The notes under the pieces are model-generated. The model was not told the origin of the DNA. It did not search any database and saw only the letters and a list, made by a program, of their open reading frames with translations. Positions 3,620 to 12,601 of a stretch of DNA of 37,960 nucleotides are shown here, piece by piece. The stretch's first letter is position 1; every line of letters starts with the position of its first letter. The translations under genes were made by a program, and so were the position numbers. The DNA is from a virus (taxonomy: Duplodnaviria; Heunggongvirae; Uroviricota; Caudoviricetes): IMG/VR virus record IMGVR_UViG_2588253749_000006. The stretch is one strand, 5' to 3'.

Positions 3620-4813
3620 TTAAACCCCTTTGACAACGTCAGCGTTGACCTGTGGAACCCCGATTTCAGCGGCCAGATTCATGGCGGCTATCACCAGGTT
3701 ACTGACGGCCAGCGGATACAACAGGCTGACCATATTTTTACGATGACTTCCCGGATTGCTCAGGCGGGCACGTATGGCATCCACTGCACTGGCGTCCATA
3801 ATGTCCGTCAGTTGTTTACCTGCCCGTTGCAGTTTGAACGTCAGAAACTCTTCAAGGTTATTGTCCAGAGGCAGAAGTTCGACCACCTCACAGCGCTGAA
3901 CGACTTCACGGACTTCCATATTGCGTTCAGACAGTTTTGTCGCCAGTTCCGGCTGGCCAATCAGCACGATGGACAGCAGTTTTTTGAAACCGGACTCCAG
4001 CTCAAAAAAGCGTTTGAGGTGTTTCAGTGTCGGAATGGGCAGACTGTGGGCCTCCTCAATCACCAGAACGTGGCTGAACCCCGCCTGGCTGCTGTCTTTC
4101 AGGACGCGATGCAACTGGCGAAAGCGGGCGTCCTGACTGCGTCTGATGCTTTCCAGTGGTGCGATGGTACTGATAATGGCTTCGGCAATAGCTGCTGCCT
4201 TCAGGGTTTTCCCTTTCACATCGTTGTCTTCCATAGCGATGATGTATGGCTCGATAACAATTACCGGCGCATTCTCGCGGTTGATACGTTCAGTCAGGTC
4301 GCGGCGCAGCGTGGATTTACCCGCACCGGACTCACCGATGACGGCCATAAACCCACCATGACGGGCTGTCTGGTACAACGCCTCACGCACGTAGCGAATG
4401 TCCGGGGTGGTGAACACATCATCAGAACCCTGCATGGCTTCGTCGGCGAACGGGTCACGGAAAAGACCAAACGCTTTTTTGGTTGCCGGGAATAACACCT
4501 GTTTTTTGAGTAACATATTCTCTTCCTCACTGAGGCTCGTTTTATCTGTGGTACCCGCTGTACGGGGAGTGGCCGCGCCCTGTACAGCATCAAAACTCTT
4601 CGCTGTATCAATCCCCTGACTTTCCAGCCAGGACGCAAGACGCCGGCGCACTTCTCCGGGGCTGGTGCGGGGCCACGCGTTATGATTCACAATCTGGGCC
4701 AGCGTGGCCTCAGAAACATCGACAGCTCTCGCCACCACCGCCTGTGGAATACGGGCCTCTTTCAGTTGCTGCTTCAGTACCAGCATGTTTCCCTCCTCAG
4801 TTGCCGTTAACAA
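3620..4813 (-). CDS. MuB-like AAA+ transposition ATPase
   Basis: Walker A GESGAGKST; N-terminal HTH-like region; immediately downstream of and overlapping the transposase gene; true start may be the internal MLVLKQQ. Confidence 0.75.
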   Translation of the reverse strand: MLTATEEGNMLVLKQQLKEARIPQAVVARAVDVSEATLAQIVNHNAWPRTSPGEVRRRLASWLESQGIDTAKSFDAVQGAATPRTAGTTDKTSLSEEENMLLKKQVLFPATKKAFGLFRDPFADEAMQGSDDVFTTPDIRYVREALYQTARHGGFMAVIGESGAGKSTLRRDLTERINRENAPVIVIEPYIIAMEDNDVKGKTLKAAAIAEAIISTIAPLESIRRSQDARFRQLHRVLKDSSQAGFSHVLVIEEAHSLPIPTLKHLKRFFELESGFKKLLSIVLIGQPELATKLSERNMEVREVVQRCEVVELLPLDNNLEEFLTFKLQRAGKQLTDIMDASAVDAIRARLSNPGSHRKNMVSLLYPLAVSNLVIAAMNLAAEIGVPQVNADVVKGV

Positions 4814-6566
4814 TGCTGATAACGCTGCTGCGGGCCGGCGTGGTCAGCGTGGCCATTACTTCATCCAGTGCGGCTTCCGGTACGCCGTCCGGGTACTGTG
4901 CCGTTAACTGGCGGTAATGTTCCGGCGTCCAGGTAAGGCCGTCGGCGCTGAACTTATCGCGTAGGGCTTTCGCGGCCTCCACATGAGTCATGGGACGTTG
5001 TTCAGTGCGCGGTCTGCGTACATCAGAGACCTGACCGCGCTTCGGTATACAGGCCGGAAGTGTGGCGTCATCAATATGTTTATACGGGTCAAGCCGCCCG
5101 CCGAACGGCAGCGCCTTCGCCTTGCGTGCGGCAGCTGCATCTGCGGCGTTGTCTGTACCGGTGACCAGCGCTTCGGTTTCTTTTGCCGCCGTCTGTGCCG
5201 GTGTTTCCGGCAGGGCTTTGTAACTTTCGCCAAATACCGCCGCGCCTTCAGCAAAGCCAAACTCGTTCTTTCTGACCTCTTCGACCAGGAAGAACGTCTC
5301 GTGGCCGTCCTCACCGGTCAGAACCACCTGTGCCACATCGCTGCGCCATGGGTTACGGGTAATCATCAGTTTTTCACCAACCAGTACGCCCGGTACCGTT
5401 GATACGTCAAATTCAGTGCCCCGGAACGAGACACGAAGTTTTGGCGTGACTTTGCGGAGTTCTGGTGTCGCCACAGCCAGTTCACGGCATACCTCAACGG
5501 AAGGCGCTTTTTTCAGCTGCTCAGCAGTAATCTTCAGCCAGATATCCGTGCGGGTTTTACCGTGGCGGCTGTGAACAGCTGTTGCGTTAAAGTGGCTACG
5601 CCATTTCGCGGCCAGCGCGTTGAGTTCTTCCAGACTGTGAACCGGCCGGAATTTCAGACCCGGCTCAAGCTTGCGTTCGATAATGTCACGCGCCTTTTCC
5701 ACCTGTCCGGTGGCGCGGGCGTTATGCGGCTTGTGCGCTATCAGGTCGATGCCCAGTGAGCGGCACATGTTTTTCGTCATACCCGCGGTGTTTGCCGAGC
5801 CGGGGTCGAGATAGAGTATTTTCGGCACGCCGTGCAGCACGTCTGCGCCGCCACGCTCCTGCATGGCGTTGATAAGCACAGAACACAGGTTCTCACCGGA
5901 TTCCGCACCCGTCACATACTCAACGTAAATCCAGCCGCTGGCATGGTCGGTAATCTCGTAACTCCACACGCGGTCACTGGCGATACGGGCAAGGTTAGCG
6001 GGTTTGTTCTTGTAGAACTTCGCGCTGTCCATCACCTGCAGCCCTTTGTGTCCATTGCTCAGGTAGTAAAGCGTGCAGAGCGAGGCATCAATCTGCCAGA
6101 CGTGATTGGGATGCAGACTGGCCACTTCGGTATGCGGCGCAGGGGCATCCAGTTGTTCCGGGTGCAGGCCATAGTTACGCAAGGCACGACTGATGGCATC
6201 TTCGGACAACGGGAAAAACTCACCGGTGGTTTCATCTGTTCTGCCTGCGGAGATAAAGCCGTTAGCCCGCAGGGTTTCCACTGCATCTGCGATGGAATAG
6301 AGACGCTTACCGTTCTTGCGGGTGGCCTCACGCAGTGTGGCAGATATCAGCGCGGCTTCGTCGCGGGTCAGGGCGCTGCGCCCGGCATCGGCGCGTTTTT
6401 TGCGTTTATCAGTCACAGATACCTCCTTCAGCTTGCGCAGCAGAGTGGCGCGGGACATGCCAAGTTCAGCACAGGCAGCGTCGTATATTGCACCGCGTTT
6501 ACCATGCCCCGCGTCACGTGCCGCGCGGGCGACATAAACCAGTCGTTCAGTCAGGGCAGCATTCAT
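4797..6566 (-). CDS. Mu A-type DDE transposase
   Basis: 589 aa; N-terminal HTH; HVWQIDAS and YLDPGS candidate DDE blocks; followed by the MuB-like gene. Confidence 0.8.
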   Translation of the reverse strand: MNAALTERLVYVARAARDAGHGKRGAIYDAACAELGMSRATLLRKLKEVSVTDKRKKRADAGRSALTRDEAALISATLREATRKNGKRLYSIADAVETLRANGFISAGRTDETTGEFFPLSEDAISRALRNYGLHPEQLDAPAPHTEVASLHPNHVWQIDASLCTLYYLSNGHKGLQVMDSAKFYKNKPANLARIASDRVWSYEITDHASGWIYVEYVTGAESGENLCSVLINAMQERGGADVLHGVPKILYLDPGSANTAGMTKNMCRSLGIDLIAHKPHNARATGQVEKARDIIERKLEPGLKFRPVHSLEELNALAAKWRSHFNATAVHSRHGKTRTDIWLKITAEQLKKAPSVEVCRELAVATPELRKVTPKLRVSFRGTEFDVSTVPGVLVGEKLMITRNPWRSDVAQVVLTGEDGHETFFLVEEVRKNEFGFAEGAAVFGESYKALPETPAQTAAKETEALVTGTDNAADAAAARKAKALPFGGRLDPYKHIDDATLPACIPKRGQVSDVRRPRTEQRPMTHVEAAKALRDKFSADGLTWTPEHYRQLTAQYPDGVPEAALDEVMATLTTPARSSVISIVNGN

Positions 6567-8041: not shown

Positions 8042-8130
8042 TGTTGTCTCCTTTGTTGATGCAATGATGTTTGTTTTATATGTGATAGATTATGAGAACT
8101 ATTGTTCTCATTGTCAATGAGGTTTATGTG
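8040..8130. promoter_or_regulatory. divergent early/repressor control region with operator-like palindrome
   Basis: Short AT-rich gap between divergent ner-like and repressor genes; perfect inverted repeat TGAGAACTATTGTTCTCA at about 8093..8110. Confidence 0.4.
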
Positions 8131-8553
8131 AATTTTGATTCTCTTTGCGCGTCGCGGTTCAAAGCTGAGCGTTCGCGGTTATCACTCAAGCAGGCTGAAG
8201 TAGCAGCCCTTTGTGGCGTTTCAAGAGAAATGTGGGGGAAATATGAACGAGGGGTTGCAGTTCCCGGAGGTGAGTTACTTGCAGCCTTTGCAAGAATTGG
8301 GGCCAACGTACAGTTCATTCTTACTGGGGAATCATCAGGTATAACTTTATCACGTGATGAAATGGAGTTACTTCAGCACTACCGGCAAGCACCGTTACAA
8401 GTCAAAGGTTCAGTTTTGTCGGCATTGACGACTGGCTCCTCCAGAGAACGGGCGGAACAGGTTATTCATGGAGATGTTCTGGGGAATGTTATCAAAGGTA
8501 ACGTAACCATAGGAACAGGTGGAATAATGAACAAAAATACAAAGAGAAAATGA
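8092..8553 (+). CDS. XRE-family HTH repressor (immunity repressor candidate)
   Basis: HTH LSLKQAEVAALCGVSREMWGKYERG; divergent from the ner-like gene; true start may be the GTG near 8128 because the annotated ATG overlaps a palindrome. Confidence 0.65.
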   Translation: MRTIVLIVNEVYVNFDSLCASRFKAERSRLSLKQAEVAALCGVSREMWGKYERGVAVPGGELLAAFARIGANVQFILTGESSGITLSRDEMELLQHYRQAPLQVKGSVLSALTTGSSRERAEQVIHGDVLGNVIKGNVTIGTGGIMNKNTKRK

Positions 8554-9536
8554 GTAAAGAGAAGCAAACAGTTAACGGAGATGTGGGTAACGTTGTCAGC
8601 GGTGATGTTACCATTCATAACTATTCTGCTGACATACTTCCCTCTGCCCAGCAACCAATTTCGTTGCTGCAAAAACGCGATTTACACAGATTGATGGATG
8701 AATTGGTTGATCTGGGGGAAAGTAAGCGCGAACTATGGATGACGATCCACACGAAACTTAATACCAAAACAGTTAATGAAATGACTGCGGCTGATTATCA
8801 TGGTGCGGTTGAGATCCTCCAGAGATATGCACAACAGATCCAGAATATGAAGGACTGTAATCTTCTGGTCAGCAAAATAATGGTGCTTACTGACCCTAGG
8901 TATCGTCTTGACCGTGACAGATACTGTCTGAAGCATTTCGGTACAACCCATCTTAAAGGCCTGGACAAAGAGCAGTTGCAGGCTGTGTTTGGTTATTTTG
9001 ATGATCTGCTGAATATTCGTGATGAGAGTAAAACTCTATCACCTCCATCGGACAGCGGGGCAAAATCAGTCGCGACTGTACCAACCAGAAGCCGGAAGCC
9101 TCATGTAGTAGTGTTGGGGGGAGCGTTAGTTCTTGTCGCAATATTTTTCGTGGGAATGATTGTGTTCGCTGGTAAATGGGGAAATGCTAAAGCAGTAGCA
9201 TCTACTGAAACCAGCGTTTTTAACATTAAAACCAACGACAAAATAATAGAAGATTCCATCCCAGCATTACGCAGCATGTTTCCAGGGTTAAATAAGTACT
9301 CAGATGATTTCCATTCGGTTTCAAGCTACAAGCAAAAATCGGGCTGGCATACCCTTAAATTCACGGTGTCTACACAGGCAATAATACCTGAATCTTATGG
9401 TGTTAAAGGGAAAACTTGTTACATCAACATAAACCCCGATGGTCGTTATGCCCGTGTTTTGACCGCCCCATGTAGAGCTCTATTACTTGACCAACAAAAC
9501 ACTCCAGATAGTAAATATCGTTATATTTTGAAATAG
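8550..9536 (+). CDS. unknown single-pass membrane protein, translationally coupled to the repressor
   Basis: 328 aa; ATGA start/stop overlap with the repressor gene; central hydrophobic segment VVVLGGALVLVAIFFVGMIVFAG; AT-rich. Confidence 0.6.
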   Translation: MSKEKQTVNGDVGNVVSGDVTIHNYSADILPSAQQPISLLQKRDLHRLMDELVDLGESKRELWMTIHTKLNTKTVNEMTAADYHGAVEILQRYAQQIQNMKDCNLLVSKIMVLTDPRYRLDRDRYCLKHFGTTHLKGLDKEQLQAVFGYFDDLLNIRDESKTLSPPSDSGAKSVATVPTRSRKPHVVVLGGALVLVAIFFVGMIVFAGKWGNAKAVASTETSVFNIKTNDKIIEDSIPALRSMFPGLNKYSDDFHSVSSYKQKSGWHTLKFTVSTQAIIPESYGVKGKTCYININPDGRYARVLTAPCRALLLDQQNTPDSKYRYILK

Positions 9537-9556: not shown

Positions 9557-10048
9557 ATGGGGCTAATTAAACGATATAGAACAGATTATCCGAACCAAGT
9601 ACATCAACTTTCTGTTGCTGTTTCAAAGCATTATTATGCGGGAGTTGATGGATTGCTTAAGTACCAGAAAAAACCATTTGATATAAAACTTAGCAATGCA
9701 AGTAAAACTGGAAAAGATCATTTACTAGTCTATTCGTTACGCGATCACTACAGTGGTTTGTTTTATATAGAATTGGCATTTCTTTCTACACCACAACCTA
9801 TAACAGCTTTTTTGGGAAGGGCATGGAGGCCAAAGGAAGATAACGTGTTACAGGGTCTTCCTGATATGCTGATGATCCCCAAAACTGTAGAAGATGAGTT
9901 CCCTAACGTATGTAATGCCGTTTATAACCAAGGAGTTGATCTTTTAAAAGTAACCAGCGGTTTTCAGAGTGGAGGGCTTATCGCCATACGAGCGGTAGAG
10001 GAAGATCTTAAATTCTACACAAATACTCCTATAGCACGAGTTTCGTGA
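9557..10048 (+). CDS. unknown protein, second gene of the repressor-linked cassette
   Basis: 163-aa ORF 20 bp after the previous gene; AT-rich; no recognisable motif. Confidence 0.5.
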   Translation: MGLIKRYRTDYPNQVHQLSVAVSKHYYAGVDGLLKYQKKPFDIKLSNASKTGKDHLLVYSLRDHYSGLFYIELAFLSTPQPITAFLGRAWRPKEDNVLQGLPDMLMIPKTVEDEFPNVCNAVYNQGVDLLKVTSGFQSGGLIAIRAVEEDLKFYTNTPIARVS

Positions 10049-10339
10049 GGTTGCGGTTAAAACATGCAGATACAATGCTAATGATATCGCCCGAACCAAT
10101 AAAGAAACAAAGCAAGAGATGTGGTTACGAAACGTCGGTCAGATAGATATACCTTCTCCAGATTTTTGAAACCTGAAATCACGGTGTCGACGGTTCATTC
10201 TGACGCATCATTTATTCTCGTCAGTTGCCTCATATTCGTGCGTGCTAGGAAACATCGGCCAGAATATGTCTGGCATGGCGGCGTTTACAACCAATCCATG
10301 GAGCGATGGGGAATGTCTGCATTTTCATAATCTGTAACC

Positions 10340-10470
10340 CTTTTATAATTATAAAAAATATGGCAGGCTAGTCTGGTCTCGCGAGACTGACTGAACCTCG
10401 GTCGGCTCACAGTGCATTCCTGTGGGGCGATGACCAGCCCGGAGTTCGGGTACCGGGCTGGTCGTTCTTT
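10340..10470 (+). ncRNA. candidate small structured RNA (promoter-like TATAAT, two hairpins, T-rich tail)
   Basis: Palindromic TTTTATAATTATAAAA, then GTCTCGCGAGAC palindrome, then an 11-bp perfect stem GACCAGCCCGG/CCGGGCTGGTC followed by GTCGTTCTTT, inside a 530-bp gap. Confidence 0.2.
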
Positions 10471-10578
10471 CACTGTCAGAGTTCAGAGTGAAGTTTTGAG
10501 ATACATGATTTCTATTAACGCGATTTACTGGATGCATTACCTACGTGCAGTGTTTGTTCGATAAGGATTGTTTTCTGA

Positions 10579-11154
10579 ATGGGAACGTATTACACACTTG
10601 ATTCCGCTAGTCGTCTGCCTTCGCCTTGTCATGTAATTACCGGAAAATACGAGCCTGAAATGCCAGAACTGGCCGCTTTTCTTCATCAGATGTATCCCAA
10701 TGGCCTTTCGAGTCACGGGTATAACTATCTCTATAACCCCGGCCCTAAAATGGAAGATGACAGTGGAATCAGCAGAAGTCTGCTGGTCGGTCTGGTGTTT
10801 GAGTTAGTTCGCCGTAGCCATTTTCCTGATAAACCTTCCCGCTATCAGTCACTGTTTGCCTGTCAGCATCTGAGTGAAGTCAGGAAGTTCAGGGAATTAC
10901 TGGCTGATGAGAGAGGCGAAGACGAAATAAGAACGGCACCGATATATGAAGTCATCACAAATGAGCAGGTGCATCGCGGAGATATGAGGTTATTGAACAG
11001 TGATTGCCCGGTGCTGGAACTGTATCACCGTGCTTGGCTTTACTGGTCGGGTGAAGCAGCCCCAGTTAAGACTGGTGAGGACGAACCGTTCTGGGAACTG
11101 CTGATTCCGCTTCCAGTATTCGTTGGTCGAAGGATAACTGAATCGCAGGATTAG
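10579..11154 (+). CDS. unknown protein (accessory region)
   Basis: 191-aa ORF with an upstream AAGGA. Confidence 0.5.
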   Translation: MGTYYTLDSASRLPSPCHVITGKYEPEMPELAAFLHQMYPNGLSSHGYNYLYNPGPKMEDDSGISRSLLVGLVFELVRRSHFPDKPSRYQSLFACQHLSEVRKFRELLADERGEDEIRTAPIYEVITNEQVHRGDMRLLNSDCPVLELYHRAWLYWSGEAAPVKTGEDEPFWELLIPLPVFVGRRITESQD

Positions 11155-11389
11155 GTGCGGTTTTATATCGTGATGTCGCCGCCACATCGCCAATTAGCAT
11201 GACGTTGTTTTCTCCGCTGGCGAAATGACTTCTTCTCTCTTCAAGTGCAACCAGAACGTTTTTCAGCTCTATAATCGCTTCGGTTGGACAACATGCATCC
11301 AAGCTTAGCGTGTAAGTTTTATTCTGCTCTCCGATTCTGCTCCCAAAGAGGAACCCTTTTTTAATACCAGACTGTTTCGGTTCAGTCAT
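11066..11389 (-). CDS. unknown protein convergent with and overlapping the 10579..11154 gene
   Basis: Internal Met MTEPKQ with GGAGG RBS; 3' end overlaps the convergent gene by about 89 bp. Confidence 0.4.
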   Translation of the reverse strand: MTEPKQSGIKKGFLFGSRIGEQNKTYTLSLDACCPTEAIIELKNVLVALEERRSHFASGENNVMLIGDVAATSRYKTAPNPAIQLSFDQRILEAESAVPRTVRPHQS

Positions 11390-11454
11390 TGTGCTTGCCT
11401 CCCCTATGTTTTGTGTGCGACCATTCTGGTCGCTTCCCTCTGCGAACACTTATA

Positions 11455-11480
11455 ACGCGCTTTAAAATCCGTATCCCGCC
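11455..11480 (+). promoter_or_regulatory. candidate late-promoter activator site upstream of the lysis cassette
   Basis: GCTTTAAAATCCGT about 45-60 bp upstream of the first lysis gene; the same motif recurs near 24826 and 32932. Confidence 0.4.
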
Positions 11481-11519
11481 ACATTTGTGATGCTGTCTCC
11501 ACCAAACAAGGAGACACAC

Positions 11520-11870
11520 ATGAAAAGCCTGAAAAAATTCATTCCCCCTGTTAAAAAACCTCGCCTCAGCGGCTGGCTGCTGACCTCAGTGCTGTTGCTG
11601 GGCACCATCGCTCTGGTCTCGCCACAGCAGTTGCCTGTTGTGATCTACAAGCTGGCACTCATCACGCTGGCAGCAGTGCTGGGTTACTGGCTTGACCGTT
11701 CGCTCTTCCCCAAAGCCCGTCCCGGTCAGTACCTGAAACATGAAGACAGGCTGATGGCTGAAGGGCGTTTCCCTGTGCAGACCGGCCTTCACCTTGTATT
11801 TTCTGCTGCGTTAATCCGCCGTGCACTGATTGTTGCAGCGGTCTGTCTGGCTGTGGCAACAGGACTGTGA
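11520..11870 (+). CDS. holin-like membrane protein
   Basis: ATG with AAGGAG RBS inside track ORF 11487..11870; about 116 aa with two to three hydrophobic segments; first gene before the endolysin. Confidence 0.45.
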   Translation: MKSLKKFIPPVKKPRLSGWLLTSVLLLGTIALVSPQQLPVVIYKLALITLAAVLGYWLDRSLFPKARPGQYLKHEDRLMAEGRFPVQTGLHLVFSAALIRRALIVAAVCLAVATGL

Positions 11871-11872
11871 CC

Positions 11873-12601
11873 ATGAACTGGCCTCAAATCACCCTCATTA
11901 TTCTGTTCGCCTTTGGTCTGGGCGTAACCGCCATCAGACACGGCGAACCACGTAACGATAAATACAGCTTCTGGTGGCAGCTTGCTGGCAACCTGGTGAT
12001 TGTCTGGCTGCTCTGGTGTGGTGGCTTCTTCAGTCAGGCCCGCGCAGCGCAGCCTCCGCAGGCTGCGCTGCAGTATCGCGATGATGTGATCCGTAATGCC
12101 CGGCTTGAATGGGGACTGTCTGCGCCGGTGGCAGATTTCGCCGCGCAACTGCATCAGGAAAGCGGCTGGCGACCTGATGCGGTCTCGCCGGCTGGTGCTC
12201 AGGGACTGGCGCAGTTCATGCCTGCCACTGCCGACTGGATAAGTCAGCTGATGCCGGGACTTAACAGCCGTGAGCCGTTTAATCCGGCATGGGCCATCCG
12301 GGCGCTGGTCAGCTATGACCGCTGGCTGTGGCAGCGCGTCAGCGCCGCCAACGACTGCGAGCGTATGGCCATGACACTGTCAGGCTATAACGGTGGTCTG
12401 GGCTGGGTACAACGGGACAGGCGGCTTGCATCACAGAAAGGTCTGGACAGCACCCGCTGGTTCGGACATGTCGCCACGGTGAATGCCGGACGCAATGCGG
12501 CCAGCTGGCGGGAGAACCGCCATTATCCGCAGCGCATCCTGCGCGAACTGGCACCGCGATATCTCACATGGGGAGGCAGCAGTTGTGTGGCATCTGGTTA
12601 A
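11873..12601 (+). CDS. endolysin, lytic transglycosylase (SLT) domain with hydrophobic N-terminus
   Basis: SLT signature LHQESGWRPDAVSPAGAQGLAQFMPAT; two N-terminal hydrophobic stretches; ATG at 11873 inside track ORF 11867..12601. Confidence 0.7.
   Translation: MNWPQITLIILFAFGLGVTAIRHGEPRNDKYSFWWQLAGNLVIVWLLWCGGFFSQARAAQPPQAALQYRDDVIRNARLEWGLSAPVADFAAQLHQESGWRPDAVSPAGAQGLAQFMPATADWISQLMPGLNSREPFNPAWAIRALVSYDRWLWQRVSAANDCERMAMTLSGYNGGLGWVQRDRRLASQKGLDSTRWFGHVATVNAGRNAASWRENRHYPQRILRELAPRYLTWGGSSCVASG

Follow-up and report, generated by a model that had tools for sequence, protein, structure and literature searches.

A convergent gene pair in the cargo region of a Mu-like prophage

The window studied here is the whole 37,960-nucleotide stretch of the IMG/VR virus record IMGVR_UViG_2588253749_000006 which, judging from its sequence, represents a transposable Mu-like prophage of Escherichia coli, related to Bcepmuvirus in its type. 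Between its immunity and lysis modules lies the A/B pair: ORF-A (A), encoding a 191-amino acid (aa) DUF2441 protein with an ADP-ribosyltransferase (ART)-like fold, and ORF-B (B), encoding a small partner protein of a new, unannotated family. The two open reading frames (ORFs) converge and overlap at their 3' ends (Table 1). A preliminary description of the stretch had noted a 191-aa plus-strand ORF and a roughly 108-aa minus-strand ORF with a GGAGG ribosome-binding site, converging with an overlap of about 89 bp; this observation is confirmed, and the interpretation attached to it is partly supported. In temperate enterobacterial phages the pair forms a mobile cargo cassette of two genes, and in the window it occupies a prophage cargo hotspot.

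Table 1. Features of the A/B cassette and its surroundings (positions in the window)
Feature	Position	Strand	Basis or remark
ORF-A, 191 aa, DUF2441 protein, ART-like fold	10579-11154	+	ORF list and sequence
ORF-B, 107 aa plus stop, small partner protein	11066-11389	-	Sequence and homologues; ATG at 11389, stop at 11066-11068
Overlap of A and B, 89 bp	11066-11154	both	Holds the best-conserved C-terminus of A; the C-terminal tail of B encoded there is unconstrained
Conserved core of B, residues 21-75, beta-alpha-beta-beta unit (about 55 residues)	11165-11329	-	AlphaFold2 (AF2) model, predicted local distance difference test (pLDDT) 82-96
Shine-Dalgarno GGAGG of B	11398-11402	-	Read from sequence; 8 nt before the ATG
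Upstream region of A	10473-10578	+	Contains TTAACGCGATTTA at 10515-10527, 64 nt before the ATG
Intergenic spacer between the divergent B and holin genes	11390-11519		Alignment of 12 BcepMu-like loci with differing cargo
Transposase and early genes	4797-6566	-	
Helix-turn-helix (HTH) gene	8092-8553	+	Followed by accessory ORFs on the same strand
Holin (Holin_2-3)	11520-11870		3' of the A/B pair
SLT endolysin	11867-12601		Followed by late genes

Gene A, a DUF2441 protein with an ADP-ribosyltransferase-like fold

A matches the Pfam family PF10386 (DUF2441) with 31.8 bits against a curated cutoff of 25, corresponds to phrog_5663 and is named a DUF2441 protein by PGAP, which corrects the earlier statement that neither gene matches a recognisable family. 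Homologues of A likewise bear a precomputed PF10386 match, and the A profile finds BC2332 of Bacillus cereus (PDB 2AUA; PF10386) with E=1e-11. The two proteins share the same three-dimensional fold at only about 20% identity, and A possesses the split beta-sheet core that binds NAD+ in this fold. DUF2441 is assigned by Pfam to the ADP-ribosyltransferase clan (PMC7955679), and SCOP places the 'BC2332-like' family in the ADP-ribosylation superfamily (PMC3000352). The match to BC2332, itself a protein without an assigned function, names the fold of A and not its activity.

Alignment of 25 homologues of A, at 33-94% identity, reveals a set of invariant positions (Y4, D8, S44, H46, G47, E75, R78, P83, R88, F93, A94, D135, Y155, W156, E173, L175 and P177-P179). 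Among them, H46, R78, R88, D135 and E173 are candidate positions for an H-Y-E, R-S-E or related catalytic triad. The best-conserved stretch of the protein is the C-terminal FWELLIPLP, and because of this conservation the 3' end of A is to be regarded as genuine.

Gene B, a family of small partner proteins

B is a real gene family, although it is easily overlooked by annotation. No match to it is found in Pfam, PHROG, PADLOC or NCBIfam; its 16 close homologues and the 85 members recovered by profile are all 'hypothetical' and none carries a Pfam domain. The family amounts to 31 representative clusters among 1.84 billion proteins, and its named members come nearly all from Enterobacterales. PGAP annotates B sporadically (e.g., WP_024160641.1) and leaves it unannotated in most identical genomes. 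An alternative GTG start at 11449, which would give a protein of 127 aa, finds no support, since all homologues begin at the equivalent of the ATG at 11389 (MTEPKQ...). A Shine-Dalgarno-like element precedes B in most of the 18 loci listed, those of L012 and L042 being poor.

Members of the family are usually 66-91 aa long, lengths of 107-109 aa being restricted to the clade of the window. The core is retained in three B subtypes, at identities as low as about 20%, and is modelled with confidence, whereas the N-terminus is disordered and the tail (residues 76-107) has low confidence, with pLDDT values of 51-58.

Conserved pairing and mobility across phages

Loci were gathered from a genome scan, a viral-contig scan and look-ups of diverse B proteins, and were analysed with our own ORF and hidden Markov model scripts. 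In all 37 loci in which A is at least about 35-40% identical to the protein of the window, B lies tail to tail directly behind A on the opposite strand. The adjacency and strict linkage that characterise the genes of type II toxin-antitoxin (TA) systems are found throughout this clade (37/37), with B split by an insertion sequence (IS) in L010. The distance between the two stops ranges from -107 to +20 bp, and the length of the overlap is accordingly not conserved. In addition, B subtypes track A clades.

The pair appears on several backbones, each with its own gene order. BcepMu-like phages show Dam, A, and then B divergent from the holin gene. In the Mu-like loci (L007, L011), GemA, Mor and B share one strand and A is convergent to them. 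In lambdoid phages B follows Q, and the pair sits between Q and the holin gene, in the company of HicAB in L040 and of Imm_superinfect in L042. The L024 group carries the pair within a lambdoid immunity region, next to a gene for a cI-like repressor and one for a putative AbiC. The orientation of the pair relative to the lysis genes is not conserved, and the unit is hence autonomous and mobile. This variable presence between conserved flanks, on BcepMu-like, Mu-like and lambdoid backbones, is the behaviour of moron or cargo genes.

Either member of the pair can be disrupted. A is pseudogenised next to an intact B in L006, L011 and L014. IS66-like ORFs interrupt B in Pantoea stewartii (L010, 4562-7519), and an insertion, probably an IS, interrupts A in Erwinia tracheiphila (L006, 4466-5675); these two loci represent natural knock-outs of B and A, respectively.

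The overlap as a probable by-product of constraint on A

The preliminary description laid its emphasis on the 89-bp overlap. That emphasis proves misplaced, given the variable distance between the stops and the fact that purifying selection in the overlap acts only in the frame of A. The ratio of nonsynonymous to synonymous substitution rates (dN/dS) and the differences per codon position were compared among loci at 91-93% nucleotide identity. In the A-only region, the frame of A shows a dN/dS of 0.10-0.15 and substitutions of 0.043/0.026/0.144 at codon positions 1/2/3. Within the overlap, the frame of A remains at 0.05-0.15, apart from one pair at 0.62, and the frame of B shows values of 0.7-1.8 or undefined, resembling the antisense control frame (1.5-2.0). 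In the B-only region, the frame of B yields 0.53-0.62 versus 1.0-1.9 in the control frame, and the B codon positions 1/2/3 differ by 0.29/0.21/0.53 with respect to the distant L007. Taken together, this pattern indicates that A is strongly constrained, that the core of B is constrained but fast-evolving, and that the overlapping tail of B lacks constraint of its own. Both ORFs are genuine.

The tail of about 30 residues is absent from B subtypes 2 and 3 and from the variant P0011, which ends at 82 aa. A functional overlapping frame in this tail was considered and rejected on codon positions, dN/dS and its absence in other clades. The stop of B is the antisense of a Val-Lys codon pair (GTT-AAG) in A, and a reading of the codons of A finds only one or two synonymous choices able to create an earlier antisense stop. 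Since the codons of A offer so few sites for such a stop, the tail of B stays open passively. The overlap alone does not exceed chance, but the conserved tail-to-tail pairing of both families, in 37 loci and on several backbones, does. The long overlap is specific to the lineage of the window, where the stop of B sits further downstream, and it looks like an incidental by-product.

Transcription signals

A scan with sigma-70 and terminator consensus sequences revealed neither a promoter immediately in front of A or B nor a terminator between the two genes, and no cassette leaves space for a terminator between the two stops. BcepMu-like loci belonging to two cassette subtypes share a conserved block upstream of A. 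The TTAACGCGATTTA that it contains resembles ATAACGCGCTTTA (11452-11464), located upstream of the holin ATG, and with one mismatch allowed this motif has 6 matches in the window versus 1.5 expected. Both copies may represent a shared late-activator site or a -10 region. In the spacer between B and the holin gene, the holin-proximal 75 bp or so are backbone, common to BcepMu-like phages with any cargo, and would contain the putative lysis promoter, while the B-proximal 45 bp or so follow the cassette subtype. The inverted repeat GCGACCA-TTC-TGGTCGC (11417-11433), with perfect 7-bp arms and 28-44 nt upstream of the B start, was considered as an operator; it is broken in L001 and L003-L005 and is probably non-functional.

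Lambdoid copies of the cassette are flanked by terminator-like hairpins. B is placed there 3' of one such hairpin with no obvious promoter of its own, and a conserved TCTGATATCGTTAAATCGCC block precedes A behind another. These patterns suggest that expression of B often relies on phage regulatory transcription reading into it and that A has its own signals. L024, in which B lies on the same strand as the cI-like gene, does not obviously fit this pattern. An Rfam search of 9900-11700 returned only a sub-threshold chance match to a snoRNA.

The cargo site and its neighbours

The region is 100% identical to many E. coli chromosomes, identical prophages being found in strains such as ATCC 43896 and SF-088, and about 91% identical to Klebsiella phage KP12. 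PhiKM, a related phage, is classified as Bcepmuvirus and harbours other genes at the A/B site instead of the cassette. Among 5426 complete E. coli genomes, 554 match the query and 32 carry the A/B cassette at high identity. The G+C content is 0.36-0.49 in the accessory region versus 0.54-0.63 in the late genes. The pair thus occupies a variable cargo position flanked by the immunity and the lysis modules, and the moron-like placement put forward in the preliminary description is borne out by this variable site, by the cassette behaviour and by the presence elsewhere of HicAB, Imm_superinfect and the putative AbiC as neighbours.

Other features of the accessory region deserve mention. Downstream of the HTH gene, a 328-aa accessory protein (8550-9536; phrog_10002) resembles in its N-terminal 130 residues or so the flagellar regulator Flk, far under the family threshold (NCBIfam E=1.6e-11, 44 bits versus a cutoff of 353), and contains a hydrophobic segment around residue 190. 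KP12-like relatives have a Dam methylase, encoded on the opposite strand, in place of this region. The following gene (9557-10048) differs from the otherwise identical prophage of E. coli 503025 by one added T in a T-run at about 10039-10041 (GAGTTTCG versus GAGTTCG), which shortens WP_000522931.1, a hypothetical protein of 203 aa, to 163 aa; this represents either a frameshifted pseudogene or a sequencing error.

A non-coding element of about 150-170 bp (10304-10472) is found with 87-92% identity in phages without the A/B cassette (PhiKM, Phi06_2974) and is the probable source of most partial matches in the 554 E. coli genomes. It has a sigma-70-like promoter on the plus strand (TTTTCA-16-TATAAT, 10322-10349), followed by a strongly structured stretch (minimum free energy -52.9 kcal/mol, z -3.3) that ends with a GC-rich hairpin of 11-14 bp (10432-10463) and then GUUCUUUC. 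The element has no Rfam match. It could correspond to a prophage small RNA of about 115 nt, or to a leader of the Dam gene, which in relatives directly adjoins the element. It marks the left border of the cargo hotspot.

At the right border, the gene divergent from the holin gene takes several forms in BcepMu-like prophages. In L046 (3001-4184), the N-terminal 55 residues or so of B are joined to an unrelated 170-aa C-terminus, with a separate 162-aa convergent partner that was rejected as a DUF2441 relative (hhalign probability 0.1). In L047 (3001-3693), where no convergent partner is present, a 230-aa protein has a P-loop-like N-domain and ends in a B-like domain. PhiKM (L045, 4310-5038) combines a P-loop-like N-domain with yet another C-terminus, and a B-like domain was looked for in this 242-aa gene and not found. 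The gene is a mosaic, and its forms suggest recombination inside it.

Proposed function and its alternatives

The most likely mechanism, to which we commit only tentatively and with rather less than even confidence, is a TA-like or exclusion module in which an ART-fold effector is paired with a cognate neutraliser. A belongs to the DUF2441 (BC2332-like) branch of the ART fold and is a cytoplasmic, enzyme-like protein; by analogy with DarT, ParT, Res, MbcT and CmdT, it would be an NAD+-using effector of toxic or exclusion type. B would act as a dedicated neutraliser or modulator of A, presumably by binding it, and the pair, borne by the phage as a moron, would in effect be a toxin/antidote or abortive-infection/exclusion module. 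The transcripts of A and B probably run into each other, since no cassette has terminator space between the stops; for the same reason antisense interference between the genes is possible, and convergent transcription may add a second layer of coupling. RNA-level antisense control may therefore contribute, although it is not required by the data and the 89-bp coding overlap is not a conserved feature.

The closest effector/antitoxin-type ART modules are DarT-DarG, ParT-ParS, RES-Xre, MbcT-MbcA and NatT-NatR. CmdTAC is a further ART-fold module of the toxin/antitoxin and defence type. In Bacillus prophage-like elements, the type I TA pairs txpA/RatA and bsrG/SR4 have convergent transcripts with overlapping 3' ends. 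They share with A/B this convergent layout and the location in prophage cargo regions, but they consist of a short membrane-peptide toxin and a non-coding RNA antidote, whereas A/B comprises two conserved proteins; neither a small hydrophobic toxin nor a non-coding antisense RNA antidote is present here. A bicistronic operon autoregulated by a DNA-binding antitoxin, as in type II, is likewise not what is found. Assignment of A/B to either type is not warranted, although the pair may work in a comparable way. Phage morons and cargo hotspots, such as the lambdoid Q-to-lysis region and Bcepmuvirus variable regions, resemble A/B in their variable presence, in a G+C content below that of the backbone and, in lambdoid hosts, in the Q-holin site, although the typical moron is a single promoter-gene-terminator unit and A/B is a convergent gene pair.

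Several observations weigh against an effector and its neutraliser. The genes are convergent, and not an operon as in classical TA modules of type II. PADLOC-DB 2.0 gives no match at E<=1 for A, B or the two ORFs upstream, and the literature searched gives no functional description of DUF2441, PF10386 or BC2332. Fold comparison of B identifies no recognisable DNA-binding or antitoxin fold. Distant phage DUF2441 genes (L033-L038, 33-39% identity) occur without B, which implies that the fold does not intrinsically need an antidote, and the DUF2441 gene of a Chloroflexota metagenome-assembled genome (L015) also lacks B. In the P. stewartii locus with the disrupted B, A is seemingly intact. Finally, a B-like domain exists without A in L047 and with another convergent partner in L046.

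The main rival, which we consider unlikely but worth keeping in view, is that A is a phage-beneficial ART that, in the course of infection or induction, modifies a host or host-defence target for host takeover or counter-defence, as do T4 Alt/ModA/ModB or AcrIF11. B would then be no antidote but a specificity subunit of A, or a partner concerned with timing or regulation. AcrIF11 is among the fold matches of A, and B-less DUF2441 relatives adjoin terminase genes (L033, L036, L037) or replication-type genes (L035, a 55-kb contig). Moreover, in BcepMu-like phages the motif upstream of A resembles that of the holin gene at a similar distance from the ATG (64 versus 68 nt), which hints at co-expression with the lysis genes. 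This two-site similarity is nevertheless weak given the expected number of matches, A is antisense to late transcription in lambdoid hosts, and the strict mobile A-B linkage together with abortive-infection, TA and superinfection-immunity neighbours suits a defence/TA cassette better. Neither AcrIF11 nor T4 Alt/ModA/ModB shows a detectable sequence relationship to A. The usual companion of AcrIF11 is an HTH Aca regulator encoded in the same direction, whereas B is convergent and without HTH. It seems improbable that RNA-level control is central, with the B transcript as a 3'-overlapping antisense RNA against the A mRNA (or the reverse) and the B protein secondary. The tail-to-tail order in 37/37 loci, the lack of terminator space and the 89 nt of coding complementarity in the window would fit such control, but B is itself a conserved protein, its fold confidently modelled and its start preceded by a Shine-Dalgarno. 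In addition, the complementarity varies in length, nothing in the overlap is constrained apart from what the coding of A demands, and A is a 191-aa soluble enzyme-like protein instead of a small hydrophobic toxin.

That B is functionally unrelated to A, and represents a backbone or hotspot-border gene such as a regulator divergent from the lysis promoter, is slightly more improbable still. In BcepMu-like phages the first 25-55 or so residues of B and its 5' region are common to other cargo genes at the site (P0121 in L046; the chimera P0016), and L047 has a B-like domain without A. However, B also accompanies A in phages with other backbones, Mu-like and lambdoid, and its subtypes co-vary with A clades. 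As for the minus-strand ORF being a chance antisense ORF and no gene, the sporadic PGAP annotation and the missing coding signature in the overlapping tail would agree with it, but the breadth of the B family, its confident core structure, the conserved Shine-Dalgarno, a variation greatest at third positions against the distant relative and a dN/dS below that of the control frame effectively refute it.

The effector-neutraliser reading can also be extended to a dual control, although this extension is itself improbable. B, a fold-orphan partner, would neutralise the DUF2441 effector A as a protein, and the colliding or pairing convergent transcripts would set the A:B ratio. On several backbones B is immediately preceded by a lytic regulator (Q, Mor) or diverges from the lysis promoter; from this placement B could possibly be a prophage 'self-immunity' switch that turns the defence enzyme off at the onset of the lytic cycle.

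Significance

DUF2441 is a structurally solved family of the ART clan, for which the texts searched give neither a function nor a partner. What is added here is a phage-borne DUF2441 clade tied to a dedicated and usually unannotated partner gene, the pair forming a mobile cargo unit beside abortive-infection, TA and superinfection-immunity genes. The cassette offers a natural case for the regulation of convergent gene pairs without an intervening terminator, and it cautions that a long antisense overlap can arise passively from the amino-acid constraints of the partner gene. In E. coli, it provides a clonable handle of about 0.9 kb on a possible new ADP-ribosylation-based phage-exclusion or counter-defence activity.
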